Below are positions 9,555 to 32,282 of a stretch of DNA of 43,157 nt, one piece after another; the stretch's first letter is position 1; each line of letters starts with the position of its first letter. This stretch comes from Escherichia phage vB_EcoS_MM01. Both the position numbers and the translations under genes were made by a program. Location of the stretch: the sequence record MK373793.1; one strand, written 5' to 3'. The notes beneath the pieces are model-generated. The model was not told the origin of the DNA. It did not search any database and saw nothing but the letters and a program-made list of their open reading frames with translations.

Positions 9555-11096
9555 ATGGCTTTAGAATTTAGGCAAATCCTTGCTGGTAACACAGCATCAC
9601 TTAGCCGTAAGGTGCTAGAGGCAATTGCGGAAGGTTGGCAGCCATTTGATAGAGTCCTGACCGGTACTGGATCTAATACCATTGGCATGGTTGTAGCCAA
9701 GGGAACCAATGCAGACATTACCGATTTCATGGTTCTTACTGCCACCAGTCGTCAAAAGCTAATTGATAGAGTAAACGATATCACTCACGAAGGTTGGGAG
9801 GTGTTTGGCGAACCGTCATCTGAGTCAAATCAGTTTGCAGTTGCGTTAACTAAAGGATTTCAGGGTACATCCGGTAGAGATGGAATGGCTGGCCCACAAG
9901 GTCCGCAAGGTCCGCGCGGAGAGGTTGGCCCAGAAGGTCCGCAGGGTCCAAAAGGTGACGATGGTACGCCTGGTGAAAAGGGTGAGCGTGGCGCTGTAGG
10001 TCCGCAAGGACCAATTGGCCCACAGGGCATTCAAGGTCCGCAAGGAATTCAAGGTCCAGCTGGCTTAAAGGGTGATAAGGGCGATAGGGGTGATGTTGGA
10101 CCGCAAGGGACGCAAGGATTAAAAGGTGATACTGGCGAGAAAGGAGACCCTGGCGAAGTCGGGCCTGCTGGTTTAACATTCCGTGGGCAATGGGTTCCTA
10201 GCACTGGTTATACAAAAGATGACACTGTAGTTTACGGCGGCTCAACCTACTTCGCAGTTAGCAACATTGCAGAAGATGAGGAACCTGGAGTATCACCTCT
10301 GTGGGTTGTTCTTGCCGCTCAGGGTACGAAAGGTGATAAGGGTGATAAGGGTGACCCTGGTGATATCGGTCCTCAAGGTGAAAAAGGAGAAACAGGACAG
10401 CAGGGCCCAAGAGGGGTTCAGGGGCAACAAGGTATTCAAGGTTTACCAGGCGAACAGGGGCCAAAAGGTGATCAAGGATTGCAAGGAATTACTGGACCAG
10501 CCGGTCCTCAAGGACCAAAAGGTGACACTGGACCTCAGGGTATTCAAGGTCCACAAGGGATTAGAGGGGTTGCTGGAGCGGTAGGACCACAAGGACCACA
10601 GGGAGAGAGGGGCGAAAAGGGCGATAAAGGAGAAAAAGGCGAAACTGGCGCAACCGGCCCACAGGGTCCAGCAGGTCAAAATAATACAAACAATCCAGTT
10701 TATACAACTCAACTTACCGTATCGACAAGCTACTCAGCTATAGCTATACCAAACAACCCTGGCATCTCTTTTTCAGTCAGAAGGGTTGGGAATAACATTG
10801 AGTACTCTTTTGTAGGCAACTCAATTGCAGGAAGGTATTTTGATGTTGAGGTTGTAAACTTTCCATCTGCTGACGTAGTTAAGAGATATCAGTCAAACCA
10901 CACAATTGCAGGAACTAGCAGGTATGTTGTAGGTGATCCTGCTGGTTATACTGGTGGTGGATATAAAAGAATTCAATTCTCAGCTAGAGATTGGGGAGAT
11001 AAAAACATTATAATGATTGATGTTTTTCACCTTCAGCGCCCAGCTGATACTAGTTTTAACATCGCAATTAGGATTGAGACATTCAAGCTGCCATAA
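9555..11096 (+). CDS. collagen-like repeat protein (putative head or tail fibre)
   Basis: 513 aa; two long Gly-X-Y blocks (approx. aa 107-196 and 248-360) flanking a globular insert, plus non-collagenous N- and C-terminal domains. Confidence 0.8.
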
Positions 11097-14897: not shown

Positions 14898-15284
14898 ATG
14901 AAAGTAATCATCGCAATTATGGCAACCCTGTTACTTGCTGGTTGCAACACAGACAAGGTTAAGACACTTAATGTTGATCTGACCTCAAATGAATGCAAGA
15001 ACATCGTATACAGCGCGACTGTTAACAATGAATCATTTACTCGGCTTTCATTCAAGCACCCGGAACTTAAAGAAGCTGTTATGTATGTGTCCCACATTGA
15101 GTGCACGAAATCTGTTAACAATTTTACACGTGGTGTTGTAATTGAACGCACTACAACATTGGCAAAGGTATCAAAGCCTAGTGACGCCTCAATTGAGATG
15201 GTTTATACTAAGCTATACAATTTAGAAGGTTTCGCTAAGGAAGTTGGCGAGAAGCTGGCTTACTCACGCGTTGTTATAAAATAA
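14898..15284 (+). CDS. lipoprotein (moron in tail module)
   Basis: N-terminal signal peptide with lipobox LLAGC; AT-rich; own motif A/B unit upstream. Confidence 0.7.
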   Translation: MKVIIAIMATLLLAGCNTDKVKTLNVDLTSNECKNIVYSATVNNESFTRLSFKHPELKEAVMYVSHIECTKSVNNFTRGVVIERTTTLAKVSKPSDASIEMVYTKLYNLEGFAKEVGEKLAYSRVVIK

Positions 15285-18771: not shown

Positions 18772-19122
18772 ATGGCTATTGATACATTTAATTACTGCAC
18801 TCAAATCCAGAATGGGGGCGGTTCATTCTCTAACACAAACAACGTGCGAATTGTTAGCTTCGGGAATGGTTTCGAGCAAAGAGGAACTGGGGGCTATCGA
18901 AGCAATAAGCGCAGCTACCAGATGACCTATACAAACAAGAACTGGCGTGAGGTTATGGATTTCTGTTTCAATCACATCATCACACCATTCTTCTGGAAAA
19001 CACCGCAAGGCGATACTTCTATGTTTGTTATTCAGCAGGATAGCATTTCAGTTACGCCATTAAGTAGCGAAGTTCAAACTGTAAACATGCAATTCGTGGA
19101 AGTCTTTAGCTCAATGCGTTAA
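18772..19122 (+). CDS. minor tail protein (lambda gpM-like)
   Basis: 116 aa directly after tape measure; first of M-L-K-I-J order. Confidence 0.65.
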   Translation: MAIDTFNYCTQIQNGGGSFSNTNNVRIVSFGNGFEQRGTGGYRSNKRSYQMTYTNKNWREVMDFCFNHIITPFFWKTPQGDTSMFVIQQDSISVTPLSSEVQTVNMQFVEVFSSMR

Positions 19123-25230: not shown

Positions 25231-25277
25231 GTGATAGAATTGGCAAATGGATTTGCCTACTTCAATTGGAGATAATT

Positions 25278-25583
25278 ATGGCTGAGTATGGAATTGCAAC
25301 ATATGATGCAAATGGTAATTACAATAACTACGGGATTAAGCCGGTTACGGTTGTCGCGGTTGTTGATTTAGCGGCAGGTCAAACTTCCGGATCATACACA
25401 TACACAATACCTAGCGGTTATAAGGTTGGGTACTTTATAACGTTAGATGAGGGGGCAGTTAATAATGGCAGGTACATAGTGGCGAGTGGTAACTCTATAA
25501 CCATTGTTCCGGGAAATGCTGCCGCAGATGGTTACTACCCAGCGACTAAGTGTAAAATGGTAGTTTATTTGGAGAAAGTATAA
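25278..25583 (+). CDS. small tail-tip associated protein (paralogue 1)
   Basis: ATG 25278 with GGAG RBS (track start 25266 is TTG); N-terminus MAEYGIATYDANGN resembles next gene. Confidence 0.45.
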   Translation: MAEYGIATYDANGNYNNYGIKPVTVVAVVDLAAGQTSGSYTYTIPSGYKVGYFITLDEGAVNNGRYIVASGNSITIVPGNAAADGYYPATKCKMVVYLEKV

Positions 25584-26254
25584 TGGCAGATTATGGCGCG
25601 ATAATTGATGTTAACGGAAACCCATTCATCACCCCCGCTTCAACTCCTTTTTGTCTTTACCGAAAGTATACTTTTCAGTCTTCGGGTGATTCTGCGGCGC
25701 ACAGTGTAACTCAATACTTACCTTTCAATTCAAGCTATCCAGTTAGCGTTTTCATTAAAACAAGCGCGCCAGGACAAGGTGTGGCAGTGATAGCATACAA
25801 CATAACAGAAGGTCCAAACGCAGGAACAATATATATAAATGGCACAAACTATGCGGGTCAATCATTCACATTGACGGCCTATGTTTTCGCTATATTCCCG
25901 CAAAATCTGCCAGATTGGGGAATGGCGATATGGGATGCGAAAGGCGATCTTGTACTGACCAACGAGAGCAAGGTGCTAAGCGACCTTTTTACTGTTAATG
26001 GAAGAGGTATAGATATTGACTCAACTTATCAAGGCAGCGTTGCGGTTTGCCCAGCGGCACTTGGCGCCCTTAACGTTTACCAGGTCCAGAATGGACAGCA
26101 AATAATAAGGTCCGCTACTGCTGGCGTTTCCTGTAGGTACAATGGATCAACAACAAGAATAAATGCAGTTCCATTGATAAACGGAACGCAGGCGTCAGGA
26201 GGAACAACCAACGGAGCAAGGGTTACGGCAATTTATACAGCAGCATACGACTAA
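25583..26254 (+). CDS. small tail-tip associated protein (paralogue 2)
   Basis: 223 aa, N-terminus MADYGAIIDVNGNP; ATGA-coupled to previous gene. Confidence 0.45.
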   Translation: MADYGAIIDVNGNPFITPASTPFCLYRKYTFQSSGDSAAHSVTQYLPFNSSYPVSVFIKTSAPGQGVAVIAYNITEGPNAGTIYINGTNYAGQSFTLTAYVFAIFPQNLPDWGMAIWDAKGDLVLTNESKVLSDLFTVNGRGIDIDSTYQGSVAVCPAALGALNVYQVQNGQQIIRSATAGVSCRYNGSTTRINAVPLINGTQASGGTTNGARVTAIYTAAYD

Positions 26255-26279
26255 AGCCCCTTCCGGGGCTTTTCATTTA

Positions 26280-26501
26280 TCAACCTCCACAATCGTGGTC
26301 TTTGAAATTCCGGTCAGAGACGTACTGAAATGAGAATGGATATCCAGCCCTAAGTAAAAGCTCCTCACCGCGTTTCTGCGTACCAAAAATATAAACCGAG
26401 TAATTCATCCCGCCTGACTCATAAACAGCCGTACAAGTGCGTTCTGGCATCGTAGAGCACCCACCTAACACCATTGCCGCGATAACGATTAATTTTTTCA
26501 T
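26280..26501 (-). CDS. lipoprotein (superinfection-exclusion candidate)
   Basis: internal ATG of track ORF 26280..26555 gives MKKLIVIAAMVLGGC lipobox; AGGTGA RBS. Confidence 0.65.
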   Translation of the reverse strand: MKKLIVIAAMVLGGCSTMPERTCTAVYESGGMNYSVYIFGTQKRGEELLLRAGYPFSFQYVSDRNFKDHDCGG

Positions 26502-26511
26502 CTTATTCACC

Positions 26512-26616
26512 TTAGAACCCTTTAAAGTTGGAAGCCAGAAGAAGAACCCAAACAAAGAAACCAGTTACAGCAGCGCCGAAGGTGAAGGCCATTACGTTGG
26601 TTGCGAAGTTAGTCAT
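26512..26616 (-). CDS. small membrane peptide (34 aa)
   Basis: MTNFATNVMAFTFGAAVTGFFVWVLLLASNFKGF; preceded on minus strand by motif A/B unit. Confidence 0.4.
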   Translation of the reverse strand: MTNFATNVMAFTFGAAVTGFFVWVLLLASNFKGF

Positions 26617-26681: not shown

Positions 26682-26701
26682 CTTTAGCAATTCGTGCTAT
26701 T
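26682..26701 (-). repeat. junction motif A copy (aatagcacgaattgctaaag on minus strand)
   Basis: supplies stop codon of upstream methyltransferase-like ORF; motif B at 26641-26650. Confidence 0.6.
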
Positions 26702-27340
26702 CGCCAAGAATACAGCTCTTGCAAATCCACGAGGTGTAAGACTGCGAATTACCTTCGTCTTCTTGCTCTTGCCACCGAGTTTCTTATATTGGTCAGAGAA
26801 ACCATCATTAACATCAACAGGAAGCAACTCAGGCCACTTAAATCCATTACCAGACCAAATGCACGTCTTCTTAGGGTATGCGTCCCTTGACTTTATTAGG
26901 TCGCTAAAAAACGGGTGTAAATCATCTTCAGGCAAGTATCCACCAAACTCGTAAGGGTGGAATGTGTTATCAGGCTTTCGCCACAGAGATGACAGTACAC
27001 TGATTGGATTCTCAATCATATAAGGCACGCCGTACTTCTCAGCCAGGTTAAAAGCAACCTTGCAAGTTTCTGCCGCTTCAGTCTGGAAGTTTGGGTTAGC
27101 TTGGCGCTTACGTTCAAAATGCCTTGACCCACTCACAGCCAAATCAGTGCATGGTGGGAAAGCCAATATGAAATCAGGTTTCACATCAAAATCGAAGTTT
27201 GCATCAATCCATGCGTTAACGTACTTAATGTTATCGTGCTCAACCTTCGCATTCAAATCGCCGTAACTACCGTGGTCAGACTCGTCAAAGTTGAAGCAGT
27301 AACAAGTGTGACCAGCCTCAGCCCTAGTTAGCGCAGCAGA
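26684..27340 (-). pseudogene. cytosine-C5 DNA methyltransferase-like ORF, apparently 5'-truncated
   Basis: PDFILAFPPCTDLAVSG resembles C5-MTase motif IV (PC dipeptide) and MIENP the ENV motif, but no FxGxG motif I; frame open to 27340 with no ATG/GTG, only TTG at 27256. Confidence 0.45.
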
Positions 27341-27359
27341 CTATGACAAGGTTGTCGCA

Positions 27360-27866
27360 ATGCGCGAGGTTCTTTGCAACATTCCGGCTTATGATAGTAT
27401 TGTTAACAGCGAAACGGCTCAGAAGGAGTTATCAATCTTTGGTGAGATTCTCGGTGTTGGTGTAAAGATTCGAATTGACCACGTTGACGTTGTTGATGGA
27501 GTTGTTCATATCACAGATTATAAGACCACAGCAGACGCAAGCCCTGAAGGGTTCGGTAAATCAGCTTTCTCTCATGGATACTTGGCTAAAATGGCATTGC
27601 AGCGCGATCTGTTTGTAAAAGCATTTAACGAGAAGAGGAAGGTAGTCGTTGGTCTTATGGCACAAGAAAAAACTGAACCTTACTTACCCATGAAGTACAC
27701 GCTAACAGATGATCAGCTTCGTATTGGCAGATTGCAGTATCTTGAAGCCCTAGCTACATACAAGAAATGCAAGGAGCTTGATATATGGCCTGGTTACTCA
27801 AATGGGATTACAGAGCAAGAGCTAGTTATCCCTGATTGGGCAACTAAGCAGTATAAAGAAATTTAA
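27360..27866 (+). CDS. PD-(D/E)xK exonuclease (lambda Exo/YqaJ-like), possibly N-terminally truncated
   Basis: catalytic-core-like IDHVDVVDG...ITDYKT near N-terminus; frame opens only at 27312. Confidence 0.55.
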   Translation: MREVLCNIPAYDSIVNSETAQKELSIFGEILGVGVKIRIDHVDVVDGVVHITDYKTTADASPEGFGKSAFSHGYLAKMALQRDLFVKAFNEKRKVVVGLMAQEKTEPYLPMKYTLTDDQLRIGRLQYLEALATYKKCKELDIWPGYSNGITEQELVIPDWATKQYKEI

Positions 27867-28630: not shown

Positions 28631-29056
28631 ATGCACGTAATTACTGGTCAGATTCGCCGCGCTCCATTCACAAAAGAAGGTCAAAATGCAAATGGTAACT
28701 GGAAGATGTTTGCAATCGATCTCTCTGAAAGTTTTAAAAACAAAGACGGTCAGCGAGAGTACACATCATATCGCGCAGTTTTCTTTGCCAAAGAGTCAAT
28801 GTTAGATTGGTATAACGAGGCATTTCAGGAAGGTAAGATTGTTAGCGTTAGCGCAGAGAGCTTGTCTGTTGATGTTCGGGATAAAGATGGTAAGACTTAC
28901 GTGACTGTTAATATGAACAACCCTCGACTTGAGTTTAGTCAGCGTGGTGATTCACAACCGCAGCAAAATAATAGACAGCAGCAACAACAGAATCAACAAC
29001 AGCAAAGGCAACAACCACAGCAACAACAGCAATTTAATGACGATATACCATTCTAA
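28631..29056 (+). CDS. ssb: single-stranded DNA-binding protein
   Basis: Gln-rich linker and C-terminal acidic tip FNDDIPF, like bacterial SSB DDDIPF. Confidence 0.7.
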   Translation: MHVITGQIRRAPFTKEGQNANGNWKMFAIDLSESFKNKDGQREYTSYRAVFFAKESMLDWYNEAFQEGKIVSVSAESLSVDVRDKDGKTYVTVNMNNPRLEFSQRGDSQPQQNNRQQQQQNQQQQRQQPQQQQQFNDDIPF

Positions 29057-29059
29057 AGA

Positions 29060-29085
29060 TAAAGCCCCTTTCGGGGCTTTTTTTA
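29060..29085. terminator. bidirectional rho-independent terminator
   Basis: agcccc-tttc-ggggct hairpin with A run before and T run after, between convergent ssb and tail fibre genes. Confidence 0.6.
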
Positions 29086-30603
29086 TCACATATTTACACG
29101 AACGGAAACAAAAGAATCTTTTGGTATGTCTATTGGGTCACCATCACTATATCCATCAATCTTGTTTGATGCGAAAGCTGGAGAGACTTCATGAACTCTG
29201 TGGTATGTCTTTAATTTTATTGACCCGTCCTCATTAACAGAGTAATCAATCCATATTCTTGGTTGCTTGTTTATGTCAACTGGAACCTCAAAGCCTCCAT
29301 CAACACCACCCCAGGCGGCGTCGGAGTTAAGGCCTGTGCATCCAGATATCAAATAAACACCTTCAGAAATCCTCTCAACCTCACACCCCTCTGCTTCTGA
29401 GCTAATTTCAAAACTACCATCACCAAAAACCTTAACTATTGGTGAGGCTATCTTAATAAATCCATTTGAGTCGACCGTTGTATTTAAATCTCTTACGAAA
29501 AAATCCCTCCAGTCTGTTAGTCTAGCTGGATTATCGAATCTCTGCCTAAATCTGGGTGCGCCCTCTGTTATTGTTGAGAATCCAATTTGACTGTAATTAC
29601 CTGAAAGACCATTCTCTGCTATTGTCATTACCTCAGCGTAAGGGTATGGAGCGCCATTACCTCCCGGATAAGGTGATGAGTCTGAGGAGTAAAAACCAAT
29701 GCCACTCCTCATTGGCGTCGATCCATAAGCCACCGTTGCTGGATGCTTTGTATACATAGAGTTGATGTTATTTGATGCTTCAACATCTGTTGTAGCCCCA
29801 GTTCCACCACTGATTAAAGGTAAGGCAATTCTTTCTTGGGATGGATTGTAAAAGTAACCCCAGTCGGCCTCCCCAACGAAAAATTTATAATTACCACTAC
29901 CAGAGTCGACGTATGTTGTTTCCTGGCCCTGTTCAAACCTTGAAACTAAATTATTAACCTCTGCTTTTGAATAAACCTCAATATTTGTCCTTGCTAGTGG
30001 TTTGTCTAAGATATCCGATAAAGCCCTGTCAACTCTTAGGAGGTTTGATGCATTAACAGATGCCGCGCTATCAGCTGCCTCTGCTGCTGAAGCTGCTGCT
30101 GCATTACTGTCAGATAATGCACTTGCTGCGCTTGCAGCTGCTGCATCTTTATCGGCAGAAACAATAGCCCTATCAGCTGAAACCTGGGCAGCATCAGTAG
30201 CTACTTGCTGAAATTGAGCGTTTACTGTATTTATGCTTTGCTGAAATTCATCAGCATCAAAGTCATTAAAAGCATCTACAGCGGATGCAACTTCAGTTTC
30301 ACGTGACTGATAGTAACGAAGGGTTTCTGCAACATCCTGAGCCAAACCCTGAACAGTAATTCCATCGTGAGCAAGAATCGCGTAACCAGTGCCAGCCGGA
30401 ACAGTTTCAGAATTAGGGTTATAAACATTAATCTGCGTATCGCTGATAATCTCTGAGATGGTGTAAATTTTTACTGGTTCAGTTTTAAATACAATGGTGG
30501 CGCCTACGCGAATCAGTGTAAGAGGCGCCTTCCATGATGTCCCTACGCCAGTAACCTCGCCATTTGCAGCTAGTGAAGCTGTTCCTAAGTCATAAATTGC
30601 CAT
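29086..30603 (-). CDS. tail fibre protein (putative)
   Basis: 505 aa; Ala/Ser-rich central segment and Gly/Ser-rich C-terminal domain; assignment by composition. Confidence 0.45.
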   Translation of the reverse strand: MAIYDLGTASLAANGEVTGVGTSWKAPLTLIRVGATIVFKTEPVKIYTISEIISDTQINVYNPNSETVPAGTGYAILAHDGITVQGLAQDVAETLRYYQSRETEVASAVDAFNDFDADEFQQSINTVNAQFQQVATDAAQVSADRAIVSADKDAAAASAASALSDSNAAAASAAEAADSAASVNASNLLRVDRALSDILDKPLARTNIEVYSKAEVNNLVSRFEQGQETTYVDSGSGNYKFFVGEADWGYFYNPSQERIALPLISGGTGATTDVEASNNINSMYTKHPATVAYGSTPMRSGIGFYSSDSSPYPGGNGAPYPYAEVMTIAENGLSGNYSQIGFSTITEGAPRFRQRFDNPARLTDWRDFFVRDLNTTVDSNGFIKIASPIVKVFGDGSFEISSEAEGCEVERISEGVYLISGCTGLNSDAAWGGVDGGFEVPVDINKQPRIWIDYSVNEDGSIKLKTYHRVHEVSPAFASNKIDGYSDGDPIDIPKDSFVSVRVNM

Positions 30604-30625
30604 TATGTAAAGCCCTCATTTTTAA

Positions 30626-30644
30626 AATAGCACATTTTGTTAAG
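30626..30644 (+). repeat. junction motif A copy, orphan (aatagcacattttgttaag)
   Basis: plus-oriented between two minus-strand genes; no motif B or plus-strand gene downstream. Confidence 0.5.
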
Positions 30645-30667
30645 TTGCATTGTATCATCTTTCAGGT

Positions 30668-30690
30668 ATAAAAAAACCTCCCGAAGGAGG
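30668..30690 (-). terminator. rho-independent terminator of minus-strand replication operon
   Basis: cctcc-cgaa-ggagg hairpin; A7 on plus strand equals T7 on minus. Confidence 0.6.
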
Positions 30691-31620
30691 TTAGCTATTC
30701 AATAAATCACTTGCCTTATATATCCGCTTCCTTACCCCTGACTTGAATGAGTGCTCATCATTAGGGATTACCACATCAATATTACGATCATCAGCAACGG
30801 CGAGTAAATCGAGAGAATGACGAGCGCATGCAATACGTAACTTGGAGTCTTTGAGCGCGTAAGCAACCATTTCCATGTTGTAACTGGAGTGGCAAACAAG
30901 TACACAGCGGTTCCCAGTAGCAATGTGAACGCGATAGCCGTCAATGAAATTATCGACAAGATAAGCGTACTCATCATCCTTAAAGGAACCAATAACAGCC
31001 ACAGACTGACGAGTATAATCTTTTGCAGCATAACTAACATCTCCTTCCTCATTGATAAACATTACATTACACATTTCTTCTGATATGCCGTCACTATAAG
31101 CCATAAAGCACGGGGCAGCATGAATTAATTCGCCGGACTTCGTCTTGCCAACATCAAACCCAAACTCGCTATAAATACCCTCGTATGTACTGAGTGGGGT
31201 TAACTCTACTCTTTCTGTCCTTTCCATTATCTCTAAGCATCTTTCATGGTCAATCTGGGCGCCCATTTTGTATGGTGATGTCCTTGATGCTCTTTTGTTT
31301 GCTTTTGCAACAATCTCAACAGGAACCAGATTTAACCAGTCACCAAGCGTATCTATTGTTTCGCTATAACTCATTCCTGAGCACTTCATGACCCAACCAA
31401 CACCAGAATCATTGCCGCACTGGTTGCATATTGCTGCACCGTTGCCTTTTTCCTGACCTAGCTCATCCGTGAATCGAAACCTATCACGACCTCCGCAGTT
31501 TGGGCATGGACCATGCTTCTTGCTAAGATTTTCTCTGGTCCATCCTAAATGAGACAGGTATAACTCACCCCACATCCCTTTCATTTTAGCTATCACTTCA
31601 TTTTTATCATGATGATTCAT
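30691..31620 (-). CDS. DNA primase (zinc-ribbon + TOPRIM-like, putative)
   Basis: CPNCGG...C..C zinc-binding cluster near N-terminus; ATG 31620 with GGAGG RBS inside track ORF. Confidence 0.5.
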   Translation of the reverse strand: MNHHDKNEVIAKMKGMWGELYLSHLGWTRENLSKKHGPCPNCGGRDRFRFTDELGQEKGNGAAICNQCGNDSGVGWVMKCSGMSYSETIDTLGDWLNLVPVEIVAKANKRASRTSPYKMGAQIDHERCLEIMERTERVELTPLSTYEGIYSEFGFDVGKTKSGELIHAAPCFMAYSDGISEEMCNVMFINEEGDVSYAAKDYTRQSVAVIGSFKDDEYAYLVDNFIDGYRVHIATGNRCVLVCHSSYNMEMVAYALKDSKLRIACARHSLDLLAVADDRNIDVVIPNDEHSFKSGVRKRIYKASDLLNS

Positions 31621-31675
31621 ATACACCTCCATAAACAATAAAGGCACTATACATAATGCACAGTGCCATTGCTTA

Positions 31676-32182: not shown

Positions 32183-32193
32183 TATTAATCTCC

Positions 32194-32213
32194 AATAGCA
32201 CTTTTTGTTAAAA
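32194..32213 (+). repeat. junction motif A copy (aatagcactttttgttaaaa)
   Basis: in divergent intergenic region 12 nt from HTH gene start and about 70 nt upstream of helicase ATG. Confidence 0.6.
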
Positions 32214-32282
32214 GTCGTTTTGATTTAGTGTTAGTATTGTACCCAACAAAACGCTACAACACAAATTAATAGGGCTTAACAA

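Follow-up and report, generated by a model that had tools for sequence, protein, structure and literature searches.

A T1-type lateral tail fibre gene of Escherichia phage vB_EcoS_MM01: a family-wide locus, predicted transcription signals of its own and an exchangeable distal part

The fibre gene and its neighbourhood

The window, by which we mean the whole 43,157-nucleotide stretch of Escherichia phage vB_EcoS_MM01 that was analysed (the complete genome, sequence record MK373793.1), belongs with the T1-like phages: its DNA is 80-87% identical to that of Rtp, ACG-M12 and other Braunvirinae (Drexlerviridae) over approximately 60-80% of its length. A preliminary description had placed a tail fibre gene on the minus strand between ssb and the primase gene, and an ORF is present there at exactly positions 29086-30603. 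The elements of the locus are the following.

28631-29056, plus strand: ssb, which converges on the fibre gene
29061-29080: hairpin terminator AAAGCCCCTTTCGGGGCTTT, shared by ssb and the fibre gene, between the convergent stop codons
29086-30603, minus strand: lateral tail fibre gene MM01_00044, an uninterrupted ORF of 505 aa plus a TGA stop
30613-30617, minus strand: Shine-Dalgarno sequence GAGGG, 9 nt 5' of the fibre ATG
30626-30644, plus strand: orphan inverted copy of a 21-nt repeat ("motif A"), over the predicted fibre transcription start and 5' UTR
30649-30657, minus strand: predicted extended -10 element of the fibre gene, TGaTACAAT, from direct reading of the sequence
30668-30692, minus strand only: intrinsic terminator of the primase gene, AACCTCCTTCGGGAGGTT plus U7 (stem 30692-30675, U7 30674-30668)
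30691-31647, minus strand: primase gene, the 5' neighbour of the fibre gene

The stop codons of the fibre gene and ssb are 29 nt apart. The assignment as a tail fibre holds up: the ORF matches PHROG 1591 ("tail fiber protein") over its full length (E = 1e-113), and its C-terminal end scores 193.9 bits against PF25670 (Phage_tail_C_2), for which the gathering threshold is 27, covering positions 1-131 of the 133 in the profile. The protein is 100% identical to the GenBank entry "hypothetical protein MM01_00044", a label that would fit a product that is not part of the virion, for example a decayed or non-expressed remnant. We regard this reading as extremely improbable, as the ORF is intact and has a good Shine-Dalgarno sequence, the domain set is complete and collinear with that of the T1 fibre, and complete homologues with 59-68% identity occupy the same locus in other phages. 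In the MM01 genome paper (Korf et al., PMC6563267), MM01_00044 already appears as a putative tail fibre encoded on the opposite strand, and Gp44 is likened to a tail fibre of phage KBNP1711. The product of MM01_00044 is a short, non-enzymatic lateral tail fibre of the T1 type, and the "hypothetical protein" label is corrected to lateral tail fibre.

Outside the plus-strand late block, the other large ORFs encode helicases, a repair exonuclease, an endolysin and an HNH endonuclease. Because none of these is structural, the fibre gene is the sole large structural gene located there, as the preliminary description had stated. The same description overstated the case in calling the gene isolated, since it closes a co-directional minus-strand block made up of the regulator, primase and fibre genes.

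Architecture of the fibre protein

An AlphaFold2 model of the fibre protein, built with 63 homologues (mean pLDDT 75.8), comprises four parts, all encoded on the minus strand.

30364-30603, minus strand: N-terminal beta domain, aa 1-80 (aa 1-77 in the model, pLDDT 86-92), a module conserved in the family and predicted to serve as the virion anchor
30058-30354, minus strand: Ala-rich helical neck, aa 84-182, a presumed trimeric coiled coil
29509-29946, minus strand: beta-rich body, aa ~220-365
29089-29484, minus strand: C-terminal domain PF25670, aa 374-505

The N-terminal end is conserved within the family. A start of the MAIYD type is invariant among the fibre alleles compared, aa 1-148 are 81% identical to Rtp50, and the N-terminal domain is 69% identical to that of ACG-M12 and 74-84% identical to those of 13 IMG/VR loci, which were found with the fibre N-terminal domain. 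The neck is modelled as a single long helix (aa 84-113 and 117-182), and it aligns with the triple-helix region of DpK2 and with the coiled coil of ST26 (gp26), the fibre of T1, where it is longer. Anchor and neck together (aa ~1-173) match aa 1-171 of the capsule depolymerases that form tail appendages in Klebsiella T1-like phages, namely DpK2 of RAD2 (7lzj), 7vyv and 7vz3, with E about 1e-35. Those proteins carry a catalytic beta-helix, whereas the MM01 fibre shows no enzymatic domain: Pfam searches of the MM01 fibre at E <= 1 gave no match to beta-helix, pectate-lyase or Tail_spike_N families, and a beta-helix is absent from its AlphaFold2 models. Judged by profile searches and models, then, the MM01 protein is not a right-handed beta-helix tailspike or depolymerase allele. 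Nor, by its domain content, is it an L-shaped fibre of the T5 type with an S74 intramolecular chaperone, since the Pfam search found no Peptidase_S74 domain (PF13884) in it; one of the related alleles (L021) does have this domain. A Foldseek search of the model against the PDB returned no match at E <= 0.001.

At the other end of the protein, the last 133-134 aa align with aa 650-783 of SU10 gp12 (E = 1e-62, about 71% identity), and the C-terminal domain is 69% identical to aa 565-696 of T1 ST26. PF25670 ends are widely distributed, occurring in 253 phage records that include Kuravirus, Dhillonvirus, lambdoid side tail fibres and T5-like Proteus phages.

The closest known system as a whole is T1 itself. 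ST26 is encoded at the same locus and in the same orientation, next to a primase gene and an ssb-like gene and with convergent terminators, and it has the same N-terminal domain, coiled coil and PF25670 end. The two proteins are collinear over their whole length, except that the MM01 fibre is 223 aa shorter, with both the coiled coil and the body reduced; outside the C-terminal domain, identity is about 31% in a collinear alignment of MM01 aa 1-335 that includes the N-terminal domain. Rtp50 and ACG-M12 gp31, which come from the nearest isolates, share with MM01 the locus, the promoter region and the N-terminal ~100-148 aa, but they are proteins of 939-960 aa whose distal parts are unrelated to that of MM01. 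Rtp50 has a Tail_spike_N match and an annotated beta-helix fold, in contrast to the MM01 fibre, which has no beta-helix signal.

Two groups of more distant phages resemble MM01 in the distal part. Fibres of the Dhillonvirus type (NHEP3 CDS0041, PNS1) are 44.5% identical over aa 57-505 and consist likewise of a single gene with a PF25670 end, but their genes close the structural operon and lie on its strand, and the proteins differ from MM01 at the extreme N-terminus. The C-terminal ~300 aa of MM01 are homologous to the proximal long tail fibres of Kuravirus (SU10 gp12, AnnaHegner Bas87_0008, KBNP1711), with 54% identity between Bas87_0008 and MM01 aa 199-505. These Kuravirus proteins belong to podoviruses, have a different, adaptor-binding N-terminus and are followed by a separate distal fibre gene, which MM01 does not have.

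The Kuravirus likeness raises the question of whether the MM01 protein is itself only a proximal adaptor segment, on which PF25670 docks a distal fibre that is encoded elsewhere or has been lost; in the latter case the fibre would be without a tip for receptor binding. SU10 gp12, which has the homologous end domain, is a proximal subunit followed by the distal gp13; AnnaHegner has an equivalent gene pair, and its T-shaped distal fibre is described as joined to the proximal fibre; and in PHB07 the PF25670 fibre gene is followed by four additional genes. Because the PF25670-ending protein of Kuravirus is proximal and bears a separate distal fibre, the domain may serve for docking rather than for receptor binding. 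Tblastn searches of the window for a second fibre gene, with Bas87_0009 and PHB07 gp23-26 as queries, gave no match, however, and lambdoid side tail fibres also terminate in PF25670. We consider the adaptor-only reading improbable, since MM01 has no partner gene and the locus also ends with a single PF25670 fibre in T1, NHEP3 and the loci of two related metagenomic phages (L006, L007). By these tblastn searches, the MM01 fibre is not a two-protein (proximal plus distal) fibre of the Kuravirus type.

Terminators and transcription signals

The preliminary description had the gene flanked by two bidirectional terminators, which plausibly holds for one of the two. The 3' hairpin, AAAGCCCCTTTCGGGGCTTT, has a stability of about -14 kcal/mol on either strand, and the sequence after it is U7 on the plus strand and UUUAUCUUU on the minus strand, so that a GC-rich hairpin with a U-run is found at 29061-29080 in both directions. 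At the homologous site, the T1 GenBank record has terminators annotated on both strands. Plausibly, the 3' hairpin is bidirectional. The 5' hairpin begins at the stop codon of primase. Only its minus-strand version is followed by a U-run; the plus-strand version has none, its tail reading AGCUAUUC. It is therefore read as a one-way terminator of the primase transcript. This primase terminator is kept in Rtp, ACG-M12, L006, L007, T1 and the IMG/VR loci.

The predicted extended -10 element is located between this terminator and the fibre ATG. A generic sigma-70 scan was uninformative here, with 12 sites against 13.8 expected from shuffled sequence, and it missed the extended -10. We inspected 18 related loci (Rtp, ACG-M12, two metagenomic relatives, T1 and the 13 IMG/VR loci), and an element of the TGnTAnAAT type is equivalently placed in all 18, one of them with TATACT. 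The series of terminator, extended -10, Shine-Dalgarno sequence and ATG is kept in 18/18 as well. This conserved series, closed by the 3' terminator, makes it very probable that the fibre gene has its own transcription unit, as had been claimed, with promoter activity inferred from the match to the consensus; the arrangement is nevertheless a trait of the family and not of MM01 in particular.

The inverted 21-nt repeat ahead of the fibre gene

The preliminary description had also noted an inverted orphan copy of a motif, "motif A", ahead of the fibre gene, and this copy is indeed present on the plus strand and is, in addition, conserved. Matches to motif A (AATAGCACnnnTTGYTAAA) number 17 across the window, where 1.6 would be expected, and 25 in T1. 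The motif is a 21-nt direct repeat already published for the Drexlerviridae, aaATAGCACnnnTTGnTAAAA, which was described in TLS and noted also in T1, Rtp and Rogue1, and whose function its authors list as an open question (PMC11447400). A full-text literature search for the motif string AATAGCAC returned unrelated primer matches only.

The core of the repeat is palindromic (TAGCA-N5-TGCTA), and a -10-like hexamer is found 19-21 nt 3' of the repeat, mostly at exactly 20, in 12 of the 13 good MM01 copies and in 18/21 T1 copies, against a background rate of 4.8% per position. This fixed spacing would place the centre of the palindrome near -42. In MM01, a ATCGAAACGA box usually follows. We take the 21-nt repeat to be the upstream half of a composite promoter, with a 20-nt spacing to the -10, to which the fibre gene is a conserved exception.

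The copy at the fibre locus, AATAGCACATTTTGTTAAG, has a single mismatch to the published repeat, yet its setting is different. Published repeats are oriented along transcription, about 76 nt 5' of start codons (PMC11447400), whereas the MM01 fibre copy is inverted relative to the fibre gene and lies 22 nt from its ATG. It is the sole one of the 13 good MM01 copies without a correctly spaced -10-like hexamer, the hexamer at offset 20 being GGTATA (2/6), and the copies lacking a -10 in both MM01 and T1 include the one ahead of the fibre gene. The repeat lies 4 nt past the fibre -10 in MM01, and 4-6 nt past it when T1 is included. The orphan inverted copy is kept in T1, Rtp, ACG-M12, L006, L007 and 10 of the 13 IMG/VR loci.

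One reading of this arrangement is that the orphan repeat is a working operator, at which the factor that would use the repeat at about -42 of most phage promoters would also bind and, sitting over the fibre start site, would throttle or time expression. The palindromic core, the strict spacing to a -10 elsewhere, the shared exception in MM01 and T1 just past the extended -10, and the preservation of the arrangement across relatives all point in this direction. On the other side, three loci (L013, L014 and L021) keep the fibre promoter while lacking the repeat, there is no known protein that binds the repeat, and the copy could instead be a relic or a weak antisense promoter. We offer the operator only tentatively, as a possibility that is somewhat doubtful on present evidence. 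Its more specific form, a conserved operator between an otherwise self-sufficient promoter and the Shine-Dalgarno sequence, acting as a roadblock at about -2 to +17, opposite in sense to the usual site at -42, we hold to be a little more doubtful. Two further roles were considered for the copy. A role as activator site of the class II type, acting on the fibre gene itself, was rejected, because a -10 located 30 nt past the centre of the repeat would overlap the start codon. A plus-strand antisense promoter driven by the repeat is unlikely; the best -10, TATAAA at offset 22, is 2 nt off register, and the ATCGAAACGA box is absent.

Position of the locus across the family

The gene order is common to MM01, Rtp, ACG-M12, T1, TLS, PHB07 and the two metagenomic phages: exonuclease VIII, Erf and ssb on the plus strand, then fibre, primase and regulator on the minus strand, and then helicase on the plus strand. 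The position and orientation of the fibre locus are identical in T1, TLS, Rtp, ACG-M12, PHB07, L006, L007 and 13/13 IMG/VR loci. Among the IMG/VR loci, primase is directly upstream on the same strand in all 13, and ssb converges downstream in all 11 that are long enough to reveal it. The encoded fibres vary in length from 398 to 997 aa across the 13, and two 45-kb metagenomic phages carry PF25670 fibres of 523 aa and 460 aa at this locus.

These observations agree with the literature. Maffei et al. 2021, who described the BASEL collection, found the flanks of the fibre gene, composed of recombination genes and primase/helicase genes, to be conserved and syntenic (PMC8594841, S1C Fig), and conservation of the largest fibre gene to be limited to its 5' end (PMC8594841). 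Because every T1-like member of the family keeps the gene there, the unusual position has been inherited and does not point to recent capture; in the Drexlerviridae, the setting of the gene amid functions for replication and recombination is ancestral. The locus, its variability and the repeat motif have all been published before, and in this respect the MM01 locus is ordinary.

Exchange of the distal part

Comparison with the nearest relatives shows where the MM01 fibre gene departs from them. In blastn against ACG-M12, similarity stops at 29052, at the end of ssb, and restarts at 30307, near codon 99; against Rtp, it restarts at 30244, near codon 120. The HSP borders against ACG-M12 define the exchanged segment.

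29053-30306, minus strand: cassette exchanged with respect to ACG-M12, reaching from codon ~100 as far as the end of ssb

The N-terminal part is the sole section of the fibre gene that is conserved in DNA with both ACG-M12 and Rtp, while L006 additionally shares the last ~200 fibre codons with MM01 (blastn). The distal alleles found at the locus are of several kinds: Tail_spike_N with a beta-helix in Rtp, L012, L013 and L020, an S74 chaperone in L021, and PF25670 in T1, MM01, L006 and L007. The breaks in similarity, the variety of alleles and the spread of PF25670 over so many phage records argue that the distal part of the fibre is a mobile cassette, which by sequence comparison recombines between conserved flanks while the promoter, Shine-Dalgarno sequence and anchor remain. 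Composition was considered as a separate sign of foreign origin for the cassette and rejected, as its GC content (21st percentile of the genome) and its trinucleotide content (50th percentile) are unremarkable.

The preliminary description had gone further, taking the separate transcription unit and its location as signs that the host-range determinant was independently acquired or exchanged. For the terminator-bounded unit as a whole, landing as an independent module among the replication genes, this would be in keeping with the hairpin terminators at its borders, its own predicted promoter, the resemblance of the distal two thirds to fibres of unrelated phages (the Kuravirus and Dhillonvirus-like proteins described above) and a low fibre GC3, which at 0.30, against 0.39-0.49 in eight other genes, we do not regard as decisive. 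Yet the same locus and orientation, with the promoter, the terminator and the first ~100 codons, recur across three subfamilies that include T1 and TLS, DNA similarity to relatives takes in the promoter and the fibre gene's 5' end, the cassette is genome-typical in GC and trinucleotide content, and the same type of PF25670 allele is present in T1 itself. In the literature, the position is described as a family trait (PMC8594841) and reported for MM01 (PMC6563267). Acquisition of the whole unit is therefore very improbable, and already contradicted. Exchange, on the other hand, stands for the distal cassette, on the evidence of the blastn borders and the alternative distal modules; it does not extend to the promoter and the first ~100 codons. 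Because these lie outside the exchanged segment, what is exchanged is not the transcription unit.

Virion association and host range

Homology to proteins located in virions supports the view that the MM01 fibre would be a virion component. DpK2 of RAD2 carries a triple-helix bundle at its N-terminus and was located on tail appendages by immunogold labelling (PMC8552709), SU10 gp12 is a subunit of a long tail fibre, and the TLS paper assigned a 78-kDa band in the virion gel to Gp55, the gene for which is probably the stf gene at the fibre locus. The proteomics of Niu 2014 identified a 124-kDa "tail fiber" that is the J-like protein and not the lateral fibre, and hence gives no virion evidence for the lateral fibre gene.

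Calling the fibre the determinant of host range, as the preliminary description did, does not fit what has been reported for the family. In Drexlerviridae the terminal receptor is set by a locus downstream of the J-like gene (PMC8594841), and the BASEL authors state that a primary-receptor role of the lateral fibres "has never been directly demonstrated" (PMC8594841). The corresponding locus of MM01 is as follows.

25266-26555, after the J-like gene: terminal-receptor locus of the T1/N15 type, with Cor

Because it is of the T1/N15 type with Cor, FhuA is the predicted receptor of MM01.

A working model

The explanation that jointly accounts best for these results, and in which we place considerable confidence, is that MM01_00044 encodes the side fibre of a T1-like siphovirus, of the T1 allele type, at the ancestral locus, with its own predicted promoter and with distal exchange. 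In this model, a homotrimer would be held on the tail by its conserved beta domain at the N-terminus, the coiled-coil neck would project the fibre, and the beta-rich body and PF25670 would be presented distally. The distal end may be the first to touch the cell, binding a surface glycan (LPS or O-antigen) reversibly, while irreversible binding and DNA injection would rely on the separate locus for receptor binding that follows the J-like gene. The fibre transcript would start from the host-type extended -10 promoter between the primase terminator and the fibre gene, and would end at the hairpin common to ssb. Variation in host range could arise by recombination that replaces all sequence past codon ~100-120, for which the conserved 5' end of the fibre gene and the ssb/terminator region would serve as homologous flanks.

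For engineering of T1-like phages, the borders of the cassette (codon 100-120 and the ssb terminator) are useful for re-targeting by fibre swaps. If the orphan repeat does act as a roadblock, it would give the low-copy fibre gene a timing or dosage of its own, and would make the fibre promoter well suited to addressing the published question of how the 21-nt repeat functions.

Predicted organization of promoters around the 21-nt repeat

For the position of the 21-nt Drexlerviridae repeat, the published description offers just a distance of about 76 nt to the start codon downstream (PMC11447400). We assessed the spacing to a -10-like hexamer at 13 copies in MM01 and 21 copies in phage T1. Examples in the window include:

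1328, 14820, 27866, 34694 and 37027, plus strand, 21-nt repeat
26701, 39661, 42247 and 43117, minus strand, 21-nt repeat

A -10-like hexamer was found 19-21 nt past the repeat at 12 of the 13 MM01 copies and 18 of the 21 T1 copies, and the spacing was exactly 20 nt at 10 of the MM01 sites. In MM01, a ATCGAAACGA box usually follows 6 nt past the hexamer. This arrangement predicts a composite promoter in which the repeat is the upstream half. The centre of the repeat's palindrome (core TAGCA-N5-TGCTA) falls near -42, and this suggests a site for a dimeric activator.

Two T1 copies lie antisense within the plus-strand late region, preceding the major head and tail-assembly genes:

15069-15087, minus strand, 21-nt repeat in T1
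18833-18851, minus strand, 21-nt repeat in T1

Both have the canonical 20-nt offset to a -10-like hexamer, and they may be antisense promoters. In MM01, one copy lies between two divergent genes:

32183-32282, divergent regulator/helicase intergenic region
32194-32212, 21-nt repeat, canonical for the helicase gene

Here the repeat abuts the Shine-Dalgarno sequence of the minus-strand HTH regulator gene, and on the minus strand a TACAAT shares bases with the -10 of the helicase gene (TAGTAT), a layout that may be autoregulatory.

Apparently incomplete genes, a collagen-repeat gene and third-position GC of the fibre gene

Two adjacent ORFs appear incomplete:

26684-27256, minus strand, C5-methyltransferase-like ORF
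27360-27866, RecE-like exonuclease ORF (168 aa), just downstream

The former is incomplete against its PHROG profile. The latter covers only positions 95-227 of the 233 in the DUF3799 profile, whereas the exonucleases of relatives are 321-354 aa long; DNA similarity to relatives starts nearby, at 27324. The exonuclease gene looks to have lost its 5' half through a rearrangement in 26684-27866.

Within the head gene region we found a gene with long collagen triple-helix repeats, the source of most tandem-like direct repeats in the window:

9555-11096, collagen triple-helix repeat protein (513 aa; Pfam Collagen, E 2e-36)

This is probably MM01_00019, the third possible fibre listed by Korf et al. 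(PMC6563267). In the lateral tail fibre gene (29086-30603), third-position GC is 0.30, much below the 0.39-0.49 of eight other genes tested; in overall GC and in trinucleotide content the gene is typical.

Host-recognition loci

Following the J-like gene is a second host-recognition locus:

25266-26555, receptor-binding locus, T1/N15 type

It encodes homologues of T1 ST32 and ST31 and, on the other strand, a superinfection-exclusion lipoprotein, Cor. FhuA is probably the receptor used by MM01. The nearest relatives instead carry the rtp44/rtp45 (DUF6453) type; the corresponding locus of AugustePiccard, which the BASEL paper (PMC8594841) linked to the LptD receptor, is ~93% identical to rtp44-rtp45 of Rtp. 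Therefore both host-recognition loci of MM01, the lateral fibre and the post-J locus, differ from those of its closest relatives.
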